The notes under the pieces were generated by a model. That model was not told the origin of the DNA and ran no database searches. It saw only the letters and a list, made by a program, of their open reading frames with translations. 64,000 nt of DNA from Dehalococcoidia bacterium (GTDB taxonomy: Bacteria; Chloroflexota; Dehalococcoidia; Lucifugimonadales; G963668185), in NCBI GenBank assembly GCA_965261935.1, contig OZ253485.1, positions 1,304,388 to 1,368,387 on the forward strand, in the 5' to 3' direction. A program made the translations under genes and the position numbers. Below are positions 2 through 40,774 of this stretch, in pieces; the first letter of the stretch is position 1, and every line of letters starts with the position of its first letter.

Positions 2-1807
2 GCCGCGTCGTTGGCCGCCGCCACGATGCTGACGTTCTCTCCCGCGATGCTCTATTTCAGCCGGTTCGCCCGCAACGATATTCTGACCGCCGTCTGGACC
101 CTCGGGCTGGTTGTCTGCCTGTGGCGCTACCTGGATGAAGGGCGCAACCGGTACCTCTACGCCGGTGCGGCGCTGCTGGCCCTTTTCTTCGCAACCAAGG
201 AGACGGCATTCATCTTCACCACAATTCTCGGCTTCTATCTGGCCGCCGTCATCGCGATGCGGCGGCTGGCCGTGTTTCGACGCGTGGCCAGGCGGGCAGG
301 CGGAGGCGCGTTACACACGGTCCGCGTTGCGGCAGCATTCCTCCGGCGGGGGATAGACCTCTCACGCCTTTCGAGGGAGGGCGCGTTCTTCCTGATGCTG
401 TTCACGCTGTCGCTTCCCCAGGGCGCTGCGCTCGCCGGACTGCTGCAGGACACGGCCCTGCTCCGTTGGTCCGGCCTCACGCTCGCACGCACCGCGTCCG
501 CAGGCGGTCCTATCGGCGCGCCCGAAGGCGGCGGCCTGGTGGTGGCCGGTGCGATCGTCGTCGCTCTGCTGGCGGTGTCGTTCCGGCTCGGACTCCTGTG
601 GCGCTGGCGCGTTTGGCTCGGCTGCGCCGTCGTCTTCTACGTAATCTGGCTGCTGCTGTATTCCACCTTCTTTACGAACCTGGACGGCATAGGCTCCGGC
701 TGGTGGCGGTCCCTGGGCTACTGGCAGGCGCAGCAGGAGGTGGCGCGCGGCCACCAGCCCTTCTATTACTATCTCCTCCTGGCGCCCCTGTACGAGTTCC
801 TGCCCATGCTCTTCTCGCTGGCGGCGAGCGTGTACTACCTCCGGCGGCGGGACCGCCTTGGCCGCTTCCTGGTGTTCTGGACCGTCGCAACGTTCCTGAT
901 GTACACCATGGCCGCGGAGAAGATGCCATGGCTGCTCGTGAACATTGCCCTGCCCATGGTCCTGCTCGCGGCAAAGCTCATGGCCGACCTGTGGGCGTCG
1001 ATCGAGTGGCGCAGGCTGGTGTCTGGAGGCGGCATCCTTGTGCTGCCTGCCGTGCCGTTGCTCCTGTGGGCGCTGTGGCGGCTCGCGTTCACCGGCCTGG
1101 ATTCCGGTCCCGCCTCGAACGTCCTGGAGACGGCCGGCCTGGTCGTCATCGCCGTTTCGGCGGCCGGCGTCTGCGCCCTGGCGAGCGTCCGGTGGGGCTT
1201 CCGGAGCGCGGCGTCCTTCGCGGCGATTCCGCTGGCGCTGGTCCTGCTTGCCATCACAATAAGGGTGGGAACAACCGCAGCCTACGCGAACGGAGACCGC
1301 CCCGTTGAGATGATCGTGTACACCCAGAGCAGCCCGGACCTGCCACGGCTCCTCGACGAGATCGAGGGCGTCGCGGCCACCACCGGCGAGGGCCGCGACG
1401 TTCCAATCACGATCGACGGCACGAGCGGGTTCGCCTGGCCGTGGGCTTGGTACCTGCGCGACCACACAAGAGTTGGCTACCCGTCCTACACTGCACAGAC
1501 GCCCGACGCCTCTCCAGACGCCGCCGTCGTCATCGTCCACGGCAACAACCGCGACACCTTCAACCTCACGGTCGAGGAGGGCTACAAGGAGGAGGTCAGG
1601 ATCAAGCACAGGTGGTGGTTCCCTGAGCACACGTATCGGGACCTGACGGTCGGCAAGGTCATCCGGTCCTTCGCGGACCGTGGAAGCTGGCGCAGGGCGA
1701 TGGACTACTTCATGCACCGCAAGCTCTCGTCCGGCCTGGGCAGCGAGGACGCATACGTCTACATCGCCGAGGACCTGCCTCAGACGTTCGAGGTCGACAA
1801 CCAGTGA
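2..1807 (+). CDS. Polytopic membrane protein, GT-C/ArnT-PMT-like (TIGR03663-type); 5' end lies outside the window
   Basis: Long ORF open to the left edge. It has many hydrophobic helices (LTFSPAMLYFSRFARNDILTAVWTLGLVV, FFATKETAFIF) followed by a soluble C-terminal domain. Codon usage is typical of the window. Confidence 0.6.
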   Translation, partial: AASLAAATMLTFSPAMLYFSRFARNDILTAVWTLGLVVCLWRYLDEGRNRYLYAGAALLALFFATKETAFIFTTILGFYLAAVIAMRRLAVFRRVARRAGGGALHTVRVAAAFLRRGIDLSRLSREGAFFLMLFTLSLPQGAALAGLLQDTALLRWSGLTLARTASAGGPIGAPEGGGLVVAGAIVVALLAVSFRLGLLWRWRVWLGCAVVFYVIWLLLYSTFFTNLDGIGSGWWRSLGYWQAQQEVARGHQPFYYYLLLAPLYEFLPMLFSLAASVYYLRRRDRLGRFLVFWTVATFLMYTMAAEKMPWLLVNIALPMVLLAAKLMADLWASIEWRRLVSGGGILVLPAVPLLLWALWRLAFTGLDSGPASNVLETAGLVVIAVSAAGVCALASVRWGFRSAASFAAIPLALVLLAITIRVGTTAAYANGDRPVEMIVYTQSSPDLPRLLDEIEGVAATTGEGRDVPITIDGTSGFAWPWAWYLRDHTRVGYPSYTAQTPDASPDAAVVIVHGNNRDTFNLTVEEGYKEEVRIKHRWWFPEHTYRDLTVGKVIRSFADRGSWRRAMDYFMHRKLSSGLGSEDAYVYIAEDLPQTFEVDNQ

Positions 1808-33575: not shown

Positions 33576-33698
33576 CCGGATACGAAACTGCGCTTCGGTC
33601 CGCCGCTTGCATAGCACGCCGTTTTCCACCTCTGTCTAGGACTGCGCCGGAGTTTACAGGAATCGGCGCCGGTGCCAGGCTGCCCCGGTCGGGCTAGA

Positions 33699-35954
33699 AT
33701 GCCGGGACCATCCTTTCATTTGGGTCAATTTGTGACTGAAGGCCTTCGGACGCTTCTGAAGTCGCGGTTTGGTCATGACCGGTTCCTGCCGATGCAAGAA
33801 CAGGTCATCCACAACGTGTTGCGCGGGCATAATTCCATCGTGTTGATGCCCACGGGAGGTGGAAAGTCCCTTTGCTATCAACTTCCGGCCCTCTGCCTGG
33901 AAGGTCTGACACTAGTTGTCTCCCCGTTGATCGCGCTGATGAAGGACCAGGTCGATGCCCTGAATAGGCGCGGAATTCCTGCTGGCTTCATTAACAGTGC
34001 AATGGCCCCTGACCATTCGCGTCGTGTAGCGAGAGAAGCGCGGGATGGTCAGCTGAAGCTCCTGTACGTTGCGCCCGAACGAATAGCGATGCCTCGCTTC
34101 CGACAGTTTCTACTCGGGCTGAATGTCGGGCTGATTGCGATCGACGAAGCCCACTGCATCTCGGAGTGGGGGCACGACTTCAGACCGGACTACCGCAACC
34201 TCCAGTCCTTACGGGCCGACTTTCCAACCTTGCCCACAATCGCGCTTACGGCGACAGCTACGGAAAGGGTCCGGAACGACATCGCTGAAGTCCTTCTCAT
34301 GAATGACGCTGAGCATTTCACGGCCAGCTTCAACAGACCCAACCTGACTTACACAGTCAGGCGCAAAGGGTCCGAATTTGAGGACCTCGTCAGACTCTTG
34401 GCAGACATCCAGGGCGGCTCCGCAATCGTATACCGCTTCTCCCGCAAGGGCACTGAGGATCTTGCCTTGCGGCTTTCAGAACGAGGAATTCGTGCGTTGG
34501 CGTATCACGCCGGGCTGGACAACGACGTGCGTCGGGAGAATCAGGAGAAGTTCCTTCACGACGAAGTCATAGTCATAGTGGCAACGATTGCATTCGGAAT
34601 GGGCATTGACAAACCGAACGTTAGGGTGGTCGTGCACTACGACCTGCCCAAGACCATTGAAGGTTACTACCAGGAGACCGGCCGGGCCGGCCGAGACGGC
34701 CTCCCCAGCGAGTGCGTCCTCTATTACTCCTACGGCGACAAGAGAAGCCAGGAGTACTTCATTAGGCAGATAGAAGACGAGGCCCAGCGCCGACACGCCA
34801 CTCAGAAACTCGACCTCATGGTGAGGTACGCAGAGAGCAGGACCTGTCGGCGCGCATTTTTGCTTGATTACTTCGGCGAGAGGTGGAAGGACGGCAACTG
34901 CAGCGCCTGCGACGCGTGTGTGGACAAGTCGGAACTGCCAGCGGGCTGGGAAGTTTACGACGGCACTGACATAGCTCAGAAGATCCTTTCCGCCGTTATC
35001 CGCACAGGGGAGCGGTTTGGAACAGAGTACATCGTTTCCCTTCTCAGGGGCAGTCGAGCGCAACGGGTGTTGCAACAGGGGCACGACCAGTTGCGAGTAT
35101 ATGGCAGCGCTCGCGAAATCCCGAAGGCCGAACTCAAGGAGTCTGTGCATCAGTTAGTCGACAAGGGCCTGCTGGCCCGTAGGGACGGCGACGATCTTCC
35201 TACACTGTTTGTTGCTACTTTGGGCAGACAGTTCTTGGCCAACCGTGAGTCCGTGACGCTGGCGAGGCCCTCAACGCAGCTGGACCAGGGGCCGCAGCCT
35301 CAAGACACCGAACTTTTCGCAAGACTGCGAGCGCTCCGCAATTGCATCGCTGATGACATAGGCGTTCCGGCGTATGTTGTCTTCGGCAACGCAGCGTTAG
35401 AGCAAATGGCCACCCGTATGCCCACGGACACTGCAGCCATGTTACGCATCAAGGGCGTTGGCTCGTCAAAGCTGGCCCAATATGGCCCAGCCTTCCTCGC
35501 GGCAGTCCGCGATCATGTCACTACAAGTCAACGCACAGATGCGGCGCATCCTTCCGACAGTTCTGCCTCAGCGGACTGCACGCTAACAGATGCCCCACAA
35601 GGGCCGACCAACTCCGGCTACCAGGTCTACGTGGAAAATCTCTTGAGCCGTTTGGCGGACCACCCTGTCAAGCTAGCGGCAAAGACCCCGGGATGGGAGC
35701 ACATCCTGAGAAGCAAGGTGGAAGGCATCCTCGCCGCTCTGCCCAACCGCGAAGCCGCGGTCCTTAGGCTCAGGTTCGGCCTTGGGGACGGTAGCGTGAA
35801 GAGCCTGGGAGAGATCGGCACGATCTTTAGCACGCCCGGAGAGCGCGTCCGACAGATCGAAGAGAAGGCGTTGAGTAGGCTCAGACAGCCGAGCCGATTC
35901 ACCGAGTTCGAGAAGCTGATGGATGAGCGCGGGGTCAACAGGAACCTGACTTAG
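33699..35954 (+). CDS. recQ: ATP-dependent DNA helicase RecQ with an extra C-terminal sigma-70 region-4-like domain
   Basis: MPTGGGKSLCYQLPA, IDEAHCISEWGHDFRPDY, Zn motif CRRAFLLDYFGE..CSACDAC, HRDC (LRALRNCIADDIGVPAYVVFGN). The C-terminus then reads REAAVLRLRFGL...GERVRQIEEKALSRLRQPSR. Confidence 0.9.
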   Translation: MPGPSFHLGQFVTEGLRTLLKSRFGHDRFLPMQEQVIHNVLRGHNSIVLMPTGGGKSLCYQLPALCLEGLTLVVSPLIALMKDQVDALNRRGIPAGFINSAMAPDHSRRVAREARDGQLKLLYVAPERIAMPRFRQFLLGLNVGLIAIDEAHCISEWGHDFRPDYRNLQSLRADFPTLPTIALTATATERVRNDIAEVLLMNDAEHFTASFNRPNLTYTVRRKGSEFEDLVRLLADIQGGSAIVYRFSRKGTEDLALRLSERGIRALAYHAGLDNDVRRENQEKFLHDEVIVIVATIAFGMGIDKPNVRVVVHYDLPKTIEGYYQETGRAGRDGLPSECVLYYSYGDKRSQEYFIRQIEDEAQRRHATQKLDLMVRYAESRTCRRAFLLDYFGERWKDGNCSACDACVDKSELPAGWEVYDGTDIAQKILSAVIRTGERFGTEYIVSLLRGSRAQRVLQQGHDQLRVYGSAREIPKAELKESVHQLVDKGLLARRDGDDLPTLFVATLGRQFLANRESVTLARPSTQLDQGPQPQDTELFARLRALRNCIADDIGVPAYVVFGNAALEQMATRMPTDTAAMLRIKGVGSSKLAQYGPAFLAAVRDHVTTSQRTDAAHPSDSSASADCTLTDAPQGPTNSGYQVYVENLLSRLADHPVKLAAKTPGWEHILRSKVEGILAALPNREAAVLRLRFGLGDGSVKSLGEIGTIFSTPGERVRQIEEKALSRLRQPSRFTEFEKLMDERGVNRNLT

Positions 35955-37262: not shown

Positions 37263-37485
37263 CTTGGCAATCGAGCGACAAGCCGTCTCTTTCTCTTAGC
37301 CGGCCCGCAAGGCCTCCCGCCCCGAACGCATTGCCCTTCGTGAGCCCGCCAATCGCCACGACACTTCGCGTACCTGCCTGAGTGGCTTCAAGCTCGGCCC
37401 AATGTGCTATACTTCGCTACGCCCGTGCGACCCAGGCCTCCCTCAGGGCGCGGCGGAATTAGGCACAGGCAAAACAGGAGGACGC

Positions 37486-37680
37486 TTGGCTTTCGTCACG
37501 CTACGGGAAGGCGAAGACACTGAAGGCCTCGTAAAGCGGTTTCAGTCCCAGATGCAGCGCTCAGGAATACTGCGCGAGCTCCGCGAGCGGCGCTACTTCC
37601 GCTCCAAAGGTGAGCAGACCCGCATCGACCGTCAACGCAGCATCCGTCGCCTCAGACGGCGTCGACGCCGCAATCGCTAG
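37486..37680 (+). CDS. rpsU: 30S ribosomal protein S21
   Basis: TTG 37486 lies 4 nt after CAGGAGGA. Sequence ...VTLREGEDTEGLVKRFQSQMQRSGILRELRERRYFRSKGEQTR... has a basic tail. Confidence 0.8.
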   Translation: MAFVTLREGEDTEGLVKRFQSQMQRSGILRELRERRYFRSKGEQTRIDRQRSIRRLRRRRRRNR

Positions 37681-38988: not shown

Positions 38989-39418
38989 GGCGGGGCTCCA
39001 TCCGGCCATCGTCCCGTCGGCCTGGGCTGGTCACTACGCTTCGTCTTCAGCACTGCCCTGGGCAGGTCCATGTTGCCGTCGAGGCGGCGTTGACTGGCCT
39101 CGGGACCTCGGCTGGAGGTTGAAATCAGCGCCGACTTACAGGCGCTCCCGCCCGCGCCTTCCTTAACGATGCGGGGCCTGACGCCGGGCCGCATGTCGCA
39201 CGGGGCCACGCCCCGAAAAGGACGCGAATTAGCACGCTAGTATTGGCCGAAACCTATCAATCATTCGGAACACAATCTCTAAGATACTCGCTTGCGGGGG
39301 CCTTCAAACCGCATGCTAGAATGCTTCCCAACCGGCGGCGAGACAACCCTTTCATTTCCTCTCCATGCCTATGGCATGGGACCTATGGGTCTTGTCCCCT
39401 CACTTTTGGATTTCATTC

Positions 39419-40774
39419 ATGGCAGGCAATCACGGAAATAGTCTGTGGCATTCTGTTCTCGGAAATCTGCAGCTCCAAGTGCCCCGCCCAAGTTTCGACA
39501 CGTGGCTCAAGGACACGGTCGGCTTACCGGGGGAAGACGGTTCGTTCGTTGTTTGCACACCCAGCCCGTTTGTTGCGGAGATGCTGGAGCGGCGGATGTA
39601 CTGTTTGATTTGCGACGCCTTGGAAAAGGTCACTGGCACGCGCCCCGAGATACTCTTCACCGTGGCTCACACGCCTAGCAACGGGCGCAACGAAGACCAT
39701 GGACAGCTCCCGCCGAGTGCTAACGGCACTGCCGATACTTCTCCCGGACAGCGGCAGGCACACTTGAACGGTAACTACACGTTCGGCACCTTCGTCGTCG
39801 GCAAGTCAAATGAACTTGCACATGCGGCATCCATGGCCGTCGCCACTGGGCCAGGCTGCACCTACAATCCGCTCGTCATTTACTCCGAGGTAGGCTTGGG
39901 CAAGACCCATCTCCTGCATGCGATTGGTCAGCGCATCGTCGACCAGGGCCAGAAGGTGGCTTACCGGACCACCGAGGAGTTCACGAACGAGTATATTGGG
40001 GCCATTCGTGATGGCAAGACGGATGCGTTTCGCGAGTTCTATCGTAGCGCGGACGCCCTCTTGCTCGACGACATTCAATTCATCATCGGCAAGGAGCAGA
40101 CCCAGGAGGGCTTCTTCCACACCTTTAACTCGCTCCAGATGGCCAACCGGCAGGTCGTCATTGCCAGCGACAGGCCTGTCGCTTCACTCACTCTCTTGCA
40201 AGACCGCATGAGGTCCCGGCTTTCCGGAGGGCTGGTCGTCGATATCCAACCACCGGACGTGGAGACCCGCCGCGCGATCCTTGAGGCCAAGGCGGACCGG
40301 TCCGCTGTTGACTTCCCAGAGGACGTCATCGACTACCTCAGTTCACACGACTACTCAAGCATCCGCGACCTCGATGGTCATCTCAACCGGATAACTGCGT
40401 TCACACAACTTCTAGGTGAGCCCGTAACACTTGACCTTGTAAAACGAGCGACCGTCGATATGTCTCCCGACAGTCGCCCGCCACCGGCCTCAGCGGAACA
40501 GGTAATCGAGCGTGTATGTAGTTACTTCAGCATGGAAGTGGACGCCCTACTTGGCCGTCGTCGCGACCGGGCTACCACGCTCGCACGGCAGGTCGCAATG
40601 TACCTCGTCAAGCAGGAGACCGGGCTGGGACTCACAGTAATTGGCAAGGTCATGGGAGGGAGAGATCACAGCACCGTGTCCTATGCTTGCTCGCAGATCG
40701 CGGCACGTCTCGGCCAAGACTCGTCATTGGAACGGCATGTTGTCAACATAAGGCGGTCGCTCACTCCGGCTTGA
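39419..40774 (+). CDS. dnaA: Chromosomal replication initiator protein DnaA
   Basis: LWHSVLGNLQ..., Walker A GLGKTHLLHA, DDIQF, and C-terminal DNA-binding domain GGRDHSTVSYA. Confidence 0.95.
   Translation: MAGNHGNSLWHSVLGNLQLQVPRPSFDTWLKDTVGLPGEDGSFVVCTPSPFVAEMLERRMYCLICDALEKVTGTRPEILFTVAHTPSNGRNEDHGQLPPSANGTADTSPGQRQAHLNGNYTFGTFVVGKSNELAHAASMAVATGPGCTYNPLVIYSEVGLGKTHLLHAIGQRIVDQGQKVAYRTTEEFTNEYIGAIRDGKTDAFREFYRSADALLLDDIQFIIGKEQTQEGFFHTFNSLQMANRQVVIASDRPVASLTLLQDRMRSRLSGGLVVDIQPPDVETRRAILEAKADRSAVDFPEDVIDYLSSHDYSSIRDLDGHLNRITAFTQLLGEPVTLDLVKRATVDMSPDSRPPPASAEQVIERVCSYFSMEVDALLGRRRDRATTLARQVAMYLVKQETGLGLTVIGKVMGGRDHSTVSYACSQIAARLGQDSSLERHVVNIRRSLTPA

Follow-up and report, generated by a model that had tools for sequence, protein, structure and literature searches.

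A stretch of 64,000 nucleotides from a Dehalococcoidia bacterium (assembly GCA_965261935.1, contig OZ253485.1, positions 1,304,388 to 1,368,387; hereafter "the window") contains a gene, recQ-sigma4, in which a complete RecQ helicase continues, within a single open reading frame (ORF), into a variable linker, a short amphipathic helix and a domain that, judged by sequence and predicted fold, is a bona fide group-1-type sigma domain 4 (hereafter sigma4). We tentatively propose, as a plausible reading that falls somewhat short of probable, that the helix and sigma4 together constitute an autonomous folded helix-turn-helix (HTH) head which would bind duplex DNA without RNA polymerase, providing RecQ with an extra duplex anchor on promoter-like DNA.

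The helicase part has the organisation of an ordinary RecQ. Five RecQ domains (DEAD, Helicase_C, RecQ_Zn_bind, RQC and HRDC) were found in canonical order, each above its Pfam gathering score (Table 1), and residues 26-614 align to positions 2-590 of the 591 positions of the NCBIfam RecQ equivalog TIGR01389. By all testable sequence criteria the protein is a member of the RecQ family, and ATP-dependent 3'-5' DNA unwinding is presumed. Beyond HRDC, the same ORF yields a Sigma70_r4 match (E 6.1e-12, 45.3 bits for a gathering cutoff of 24.1). An initial annotation, made from the DNA letters alone, had proposed a complete RecQ and a sigma region 4 within one ORF; the Pfam and NCBIfam matches bear this out, and the Pfam scan that it had suggested as a check returns HRDC and RQC in addition to the significant Sigma70_r4. 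The peptide quoted there for 35703..35954 is reproduced exactly by translation. The module as a whole is larger than this interval indicates and extends from about residue 653 (35628), where the conserved helix begins, to about residue 753 (35930).

Table 1. Features of recQ-sigma4 in the window, with the mean pairwise identity of each region in the sub-clade of the window protein (5 proteins) and in a broad set (15 proteins).
Feature	Position in window	Strand	Residues	Identity, sub-clade	Identity, broad set	Basis
recQ-sigma4 gene	33720..35954	+				TIGR01389 recQ, 705.8 bits (cutoff 640.2); stop codon 35952-35954
Superfamily 2 (SF2) helicase core	33789..34700	+	40-200 (DEAD), 236-343 (Helicase_C)	0.81-0.83	0.72-0.73	Pfam
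RecQ zinc-binding domain and RQC winged-helix domain	34731..35279	+	354-416 (RecQ_Zn_bind), 427-536 (RQC)			Pfam
HRDC	35307..35507	+	546-612	0.69	0.54	Pfam, 73.8 bits
Variable Ser/Thr/Pro/Asp-rich linker	35517..35627	+	616-652	0.31	0.16	No Pfam match
Amphipathic helix motif	35628..35675	+	653-668	0.62	0.47	YVENLLSRLADHPVKL, family consensus PVEKLLSRLVGRPV; conserved; resembles the RNA polymerase beta flap-tip helix
Sigma-factor domain 4	35694..35930	+	675-753			Pfam Sigma70_r4, residues 687-739 (35730-35888); AlphaFold2; Foldseek
Sigma4, helices 4.1a/4.1b			675-704	0.82	0.48	
Sigma4, 4.2 helix-turn-helix			712-738	0.53	0.59	
Sigma4, C-terminal helix			739-753			

The assignment of the tail to a primary sigma factor does not depend on Pfam only. 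RpoD models are its top NCBIfam matches, residues 677-750 aligning to the last residues of these models (for example 556-629 of 631 in PRK05658). When a profile built from an alignment of 20 RecQ-borne sigma4 tails was searched against all PDB sequences, the best matches were primary sigma factors (E 2.8e-34 to 4e-23, 85-120 bits), headed by Bacillus subtilis SigA at E 2.8e-34; E. coli sigma70 matched over residues 534-612 with about 95 bits. RpoS was weaker (about 2e-14, about 57 bits), and the alignments to primary sigmas invariably reached the sigma C-terminus. The alignment to E. coli sigma70 is ungapped, each residue of the window protein corresponding to the sigma70 residue plus 139 (R693=R554, R701=R562, F702=F563, G723=R584, E724=E585, R727=R588, Q728=Q589 and R742=R603), and the E. 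coli RpoD alignment given in the initial annotation, as well as its attribution of the tail to regions 4.1-4.2 of a primary sigma factor, turned out to be correct. AlphaFold2 models the tail with a mean predicted local distance difference test score (pLDDT) of 88.4 and a predicted template modelling score (pTM) of 0.79, sigma4 itself reaching a pLDDT of 93-98. The top 50 Foldseek matches of this model in the PDB are all sigmaA/sigma70 region 4, at a root-mean-square deviation of 0.9-1.3 Å over 66-73 columns (7kug_D, 0.9 Å over 68 columns at 47% identity; 9dvt_G, 0.9 Å over 66 columns at 55% identity). By its sequence the window protein is nevertheless not a sigma factor because region 2 is absent, Pfam matching neither Sigma70_r2 nor Sigma70_r3 in it. 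A neighbouring sigma gene in the window was considered as the source of the tail and rejected, a six-frame scan of the window having revealed no region 2 and no other sigma4. An Rfam scan of the window gave no match.

The ORF is open from 33672 to 35954 on the forward strand and encodes 760 residues with zero stops or frame changes, in agreement with the uninterrupted junction initially reported. Its start may be placed in frame at GTG 33672 (the longest ORF), ATG 33699 or TTG 33720; the last, which gives a protein of 744 aa, is the one used in relatives, including the nearly identical database protein P0001. That an assembly chimera, a missed stop or a frameshift had fused recQ with a neighbouring sigma-factor gene, a danger which the initial annotation had itself raised, is ruled out by the comparative data and keeps a practically negligible probability. 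Indeed, the same colinear architecture is found at syntenic loci, in independent assemblies at 99%, 71% and 67% identity, and in many other homologues, which share the linker and the helix motif; the 744-aa form of the 99%-identity cluster is present on at least six independent contigs; and the tail is devoid of sigma regions 1-3, hence is not a truncated neighbouring sigma gene. No support was found for such an artefact, the sole related observation being another lineage in which the parts lie in separate frames (see below).

The fusion is not restricted to the window. Among the 120 closest RecQ clusters, 32 have a precomputed Sigma70_r4 match; six of these, at 67-99% identity, of 728-758 aa and with identical architecture, group with the window protein in a sub-clade, and the other 26 are 51-56% identical to it and often 900-1000 aa long, with the exception of P0078 (67% over a shorter span). 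A profile covering HRDC, linker and sigma4, searched against 1.84 billion 50%-identity representatives, gave 98 matches at E<=1e-30, and HRDC and sigma4 occur together in at least 19 of the 149 best representatives checked. By these counts the architecture is not a singleton. The view of the initial annotation that no RecQ with this domain had been described holds, since our full-text searches returned no paper on a RecQ with sigma-70 region 4 or describing such a fusion, and the architecture appears to be undescribed in the searchable literature; public databases contain it, in syntenic orthologues and in other clusters, under automatic Pfam labels and without discussion. The named relatives, on which the taxonomy of sigma4-bearing RecQs rests, are few; they are Chloroflexota/Dehalococcoidia metagenome-assembled genomes (MAGs) in which the protein is annotated as plain "DNA helicase RecQ", and the sequences place the fusion as a conserved trait of a group of Chloroflexota. 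Searching with the tail only gave just 45 short sigma fragments, which do not show the spread of the architecture, and a search of genome contigs with the single protein yielded a RecQ from Bacteroidota (41% identity) and a sigma factor from a cyanobacterium, and nothing else.

The order of domains varies among these proteins. The simplest form, RecQ-HRDC-sigma4, is that of the window protein, P0029 and P0041; P0010 and P0065 have RecQ-HRDC-sigma4-small HTH-HTH_40, and P0080 and P0214 have RecQ-HRDC(x2)-HTH_40-sigma4. The commonest extension among the closest RecQs is HTH_40 (PF14493) alone. The small HTH between sigma4 and HTH_40 (P0010 residues 771-818, P0065 residues 771-813, P0236 residues 375-417) follows the pattern RAYEPWSxEEEQQLxxLxxxGQSIxEIAxxLxRxPSAIRSRL and is sub-threshold to Sigma70_r4_2, HTH_38 and the GcrA N-terminal DNA-binding domain. 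More unusual combinations were also seen. P0321, from a Clostridia MAG (MDE5666985.1), associates the C-terminal domain of the RNA polymerase alpha subunit (alpha-CTD) with sigma4 and HRDC, and P0294 joins HRDC to sigma regions 3 and 4 and to zinc ribbons; the available sequences of both proteins contain no helicase core. P0213, P0221, P0225, P0235, P0301 and P0337 (590-1700 aa) have 6-12 separate sigma4-profile matches each, that is, long tandem sigma4-like arrays. Two relatives depart from the fused form. P0008, a 582-aa RecQ encoded on a 2.78-Mb contig and 71% identical to the window protein, ends directly after HRDC without sigma4; a close relative has thus either lost the extension or never acquired it. 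In the P0160 lineage (L001:4086-6890; also L002-L005) the same parts are encoded by separate overlapping ORFs: a RecQ of 648 aa ending in the linker, an ORF of 164-177 aa starting just before the helix motif (MPMPVENLLSRLVG...sigma4) and a 102-aa HTH_40 ORF. P0160 is identical in 5 independent assemblies and represents a real split or a decaying extension, not a sequencing error. Among the split fragments, one is labelled "sigma-70 family RNA polymerase sigma factor" by NCBI. The states shared at V587 and I576 were considered as proof of a single origin of the RecQ tails, and this was dropped, ordinary sigma fragments having the same states.

Conservation along the protein is uneven (Table 1). 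Because the identities of the tail regions far exceed that of the linker, the alignments indicate that the tail, unlike the linker, is under purifying selection. In the broad clade, the -35-reading residues are present at R584 (11/15), E585 (13/15), R586 (14/15), R588 (15/15) and Q589 (13/15), and the basic patch is kept at K593, R596 (13/15), K597, R599 (15/15), H600 (13/15) and R603 (15/15); within the -35 element, positions -31 and -33 are those recognised by R584 and E585 (PMC2613000). In the sub-clade of the window protein, region 4.1 is nearly unchanged, with R554, V558, L559, R560, R562, F563, G564 and a Leu at I565 invariant and only E555 varying (E/D). R584 (G/T/R), R586 (Q/H/R), R596, K597, H600 and R603 have been lost or vary there, which corresponds to a lower Sigma70_r4 score (45 bits, compared with 60-70 bits in the broad clade). 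The window protein has G723, E724, R727 and Q728 at the -35-reading sites and keeps three of the four residues R584, E585, R588 and Q589. As far as the sequence goes, the -35-reading surface of the sub-clade is partly eroded, and canonical -35 reading is not assured for the window protein.

This erosion of several sigmaA-specific surface residues, with the drop in score, might suggest that the extension of the sub-clade is only the decaying remnant of a longer HTH array (sigma4, small HTH, HTH_40) whose specific function is gone. The loss of the downstream HTH and HTH_40 modules in the sub-clade points in the same direction, as do the paralogue-like P0008, which stops right after HRDC, and the splitting of the extension into separate frames in the P0160 lineage. 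We nonetheless consider such a decay unlikely: the ORF is open, region 4.1 reaches an identity of 0.82, next to a linker at 0.31, in proteins whose overall identity is 67-72%, the helix motif is also kept (0.62), and the intact 744-aa form exists in at least six independent assemblies.

In RNA polymerase, the hydrophobic groove of sigma4 naturally accommodates the flap-tip helix of the beta subunit. About 20 residues upstream of region 4.1, the RecQ tails contain a motif of consensus P-V-E-K-L-L-S-R-L-V-G-R-P-V, whose copy in the window protein is YVENLLSRLADHPV (residues 653-666; the amphipathic helix is also given as VENLLSRLADHPV). L7, L8 and S9 are nearly invariant in the tail alignment, and the distant member P0338 has the motif too (ENLLARLFDEPV). 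The resemblance to the flap tip was assessed with a position-specific scoring matrix (PSSM) of the motif, as a single-hypothesis test replacing a database-wide motif search, with E. coli beta 891-923 as the flap-tip reference and beta 897-910 as its helix segment. The latter scores 11.4 bits in register, P, E, K, L, L, I/L, F/V and G being matched, a score equalled by random 14-mers at a frequency of 1.5e-5 and by random 33-mers at 1e-4. The family motif has hydrophobic residues at the positions of L901, L902, I905 and F906 and matches G907. On the polymerase side, E898, K900, L901, I905 and F906 of beta contact sigma4 (PMC10216364), and the flap is also anchored through L901, I905 and F906 in the AsiA complex (PMC6755090). 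A remnant of sigma region 3.2 (LGDFIED), an idea prompted by an ungapped HMMER alignment to Bacillus subtilis SigA, was rejected, as unsupported, as the origin of the helix: the hhalign alignment ends at column 21 without carrying the homology with sigma to positions before region 4.1, and the PSSM gives segments of sigma 3.2 scores of -6 to -11.

In the AlphaFold2 model of the window tail, the motif helix (tail residues 2-12) has a pLDDT of about 92 and the loop that follows it 81-87; a 42%-identical tail (P0029) is modelled with the same helix at a pLDDT of about 85 and a pTM of 0.76. Because the pTM and the helix pLDDT are high in both cases, the models suggest that the helix packs on sigma4 as one compact unit rather than floating freely. 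A plug acting in cis is plausible because E. coli sigma4 on its own is intrinsically disordered in water (PMC4236625) and because structural biologists routinely make artificial fusions of the flap tip to sigma4 in order to mimic the sigma-beta interaction of the holoenzyme (PMC10245118).

We therefore arrive at the following scheme for an autonomous DNA-binding head, in which docking in cis, DNA binding and the biological role are what we infer from these features. A chromosomal RecQ of the Chloroflexota type would have acquired, behind a flexible linker, a self-contained C-terminal module made of the flap-tip-like helix and sigma4. The helix would fold back into the groove that holds the flap tip in the holoenzyme, and sigma4 plugged in this way would be a stably folded helix-turn-helix head independent of RNA polymerase. 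This head could bind duplex DNA and so concentrate or orient RecQ at promoter-like DNA, a meeting place of transcription complexes, R-loops and replication forks. A preference for -35 (TTGACA-like) sequences is probable in the wider family, where the reading residues are intact, and in the window sub-clade, where the reading surface is partly eroded, specificity is probably lower, relaxed or altered. The initial annotation had offered three functions for the domain: a tether to RNA polymerase or promoter DNA, competition with sigma for the flap, or the targeting of -35-like sequences. Computation does not separate the three, and the new evidence shifts weight from flap binding toward autonomous DNA binding because a flap-tip-like helix is present in cis, sigma4 occurs in HTH arrays and the -35-reading residues are kept in the wider family. 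A DNA anchor is further preferred because the flap-like helix would otherwise compete with the flap, and it is supported by mosaics such as the association of alpha-CTD, sigma4 and HRDC in the Clostridia MAG. We also see some possibility, to be taken with reserve, of a more specific "mini-holoenzyme head", in which the flap-tip mimic and the sigmaA domain 4 would act as a polymerase-independent -35 reader that delivers RecQ to promoters. In a variant with a switch, the genuine beta flap would take the place of the cis helix, and RecQ would thereby pass to a sigma-free (stalled or elongating) polymerase.

Several observations weigh against a plugged, DNA-reading head. Some sigma4-bearing RecQs are devoid of the helix motif (P0220, P0254), and the copy of the window protein is weaker than the family motif (LLSRLAD), with Ala at the F906 position and Asp at the G907 position. 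The motif profile recovers no RpoB from PDB sequences, its length being insufficient for searching a whole database, and an unrelated helix in the Helicase_C domain of RecQ itself (GTENLASKLTDRGV in relatives; residues 220-233 of P0008) scores equally high on the PSSM; the motif is therefore of low information content. Docking into the flap groove is deduced from pLDDT, pTM and secondary structure, not observed. In its DNA-binding and activator patch, the window protein has undergone the changes R584->G, R596->S and H600->Q. 

In the main rival explanation, sigma4 would tether RecQ to RNA polymerase by binding, in the manner of sigma, the beta flap tip of the core or elongating (sigma-free) enzyme, the cis helix being a displaceable latch, a scenario that we regard as possible but doubtful. 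It is favoured by the sub-clade of the window protein, in which region 4.1 is as conserved (0.82) as the helicase core and the DNA-reading helix drifts (0.53). With comparable reserve, the tether could be thought to place RecQ by the RNA exit channel and the upstream DNA, for action on R-loops or transcription-replication collisions. The tail is indeed of the primary-sigma type over its full length, and this covers both elements of the flap groove, region 4.1 and the C-terminal helix. There are also precedents: PcrA/UvrD is recruited to RNA polymerase via a C-terminal add-on (PMC3797733) and human RECQL5 through its IRI and SRI domains (PMC7947261). However, the flap would face competition from a conserved flap-tip-like helix in cis, and the exposed -35-reading residues and basic patch retained in the broad clade would be unneeded for a pure flap tether. 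Moreover, sigma4 co-occurs with HTH modules and not with the other polymerase-binding parts of sigma factors, regions 2 or 3 being absent. In elongation complexes, sigma4-flap contacts are destabilised by the nascent RNA, and NusA binds the same flap helix.

The surroundings of the gene are those of a housekeeping chromosomal region, not of a mobile element or defence island. P0001 and P0003 (71% identity) are encoded at loci (L006, L007) that show synteny with the window, the gene order being pheT, moeA, ..., amidase, amidohydrolase, a TPR gene (opposite strand), recQ-sigma4, homocysteine S-methyltransferase, htrA, dnaA, obg and nadD. In the window, an rpsU (S21) ORF precedes htrA; this ORF (37402-37680) encodes 92 aa, of which only residues 32-85 form the S21 domain, and its longest-ORF start is probably too far upstream. 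With dnaA at 39365-40774 (Bac_DnaA and DnaA_C), recQ-sigma4 lies about 3.4 kb upstream of it and is probably near the replication origin.

Such surroundings bear on a further explanation, according to which the sigma4 copy is a decoy or sensor that binds factors targeting sigmaA region 4 (anti-sigma-like factors, Rsd-/AsiA-like phage proteins, class II activators), thereby coupling RecQ activity to them or titrating them. The activator/anti-sigma patch (K593-R603, RHPSR) is conserved in the broad clade almost as in sigmaA, and sigma4 is a known hub, many of the Foldseek matches being complexes of sigma4 with WhiB-type or phage proteins. On the other hand, this patch is eroded in the window sub-clade, the syntenic context of plain housekeeping genes (amidases, S-methyltransferase, rpsU, htrA, dnaA, obg) includes no defence island or mobile element, and no linked partner gene is found at the locus; we give this explanation very little weight.

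RecQ helicases guard genomes at stalled forks, and in bacteria their targeting to sites is largely attributed to SSB and to DNA structure. That RecQ is fused, in a conserved manner, to the domain with which the housekeeping sigma factor reads promoters and binds the flap suggests a sequence- or RNA-polymerase-directed route, which would be a bacterial counterpart of human RECQL5, a binder of RNA polymerase II. The mini-holoenzyme reading, if true, would make the protein the first bacterial RecQ with a direct connection to the transcription apparatus as well as the first natural fusion of sigma4 with a flap tip. The flap-tip-like helix, if confirmed, would show a way to an autonomous sigma domain 4, which would help both engineering and the study of sigma domains that serve in other proteins. 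Annotation pipelines presently name the fusion proteins plain "RecQ", or the split fragments "sigma-70 family sigma factor".

Compared with known systems, the window protein has the catalytic and accessory domain set of the bacterial RecQ (E. coli type) in identical order, to which a C-terminal extension of about 145 aa (linker, helix and sigma domain 4) is added. RecQ proteins with a C-terminal HTH_40 (PF14493) have the same core and likewise carry their add-on after HRDC; many proteins combine HTH_40 and sigma4, whereas the window protein has sigma4 only. With respect to domain 4 of RpoD/SigA, the protein keeps R554, R562, F563, E585, R588 and Q589 together with the RQPSR C-terminal signature, but it is devoid of sigma regions 1.2-3 and differs by the three substitutions given above; conversely, the conserved helix ahead of domain 4 in RecQ tails is absent from sigma factors. 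The design follows the logic of the C-terminal domain of PcrA/UvrD and the IRI/SRI domains of RECQL5, namely a C-terminal module borrowed by a repair helicase for contacting the transcription machinery, but the folds are unrelated and RNA polymerase binding by the window protein is hypothetical. Finally, the RecQ tail resembles the engineered chimeras of sigma4 and beta flap tip (PDB 3t72, 6ido, 7kuf and 8cwr) in that sigma4 is linked to a helix with an LL..[ILV][FVL]G pattern; the RecQ version is natural, its helix is N-terminal to sigma4 whereas theirs is C-terminal, and its docking is a prediction drawn from the structural models.

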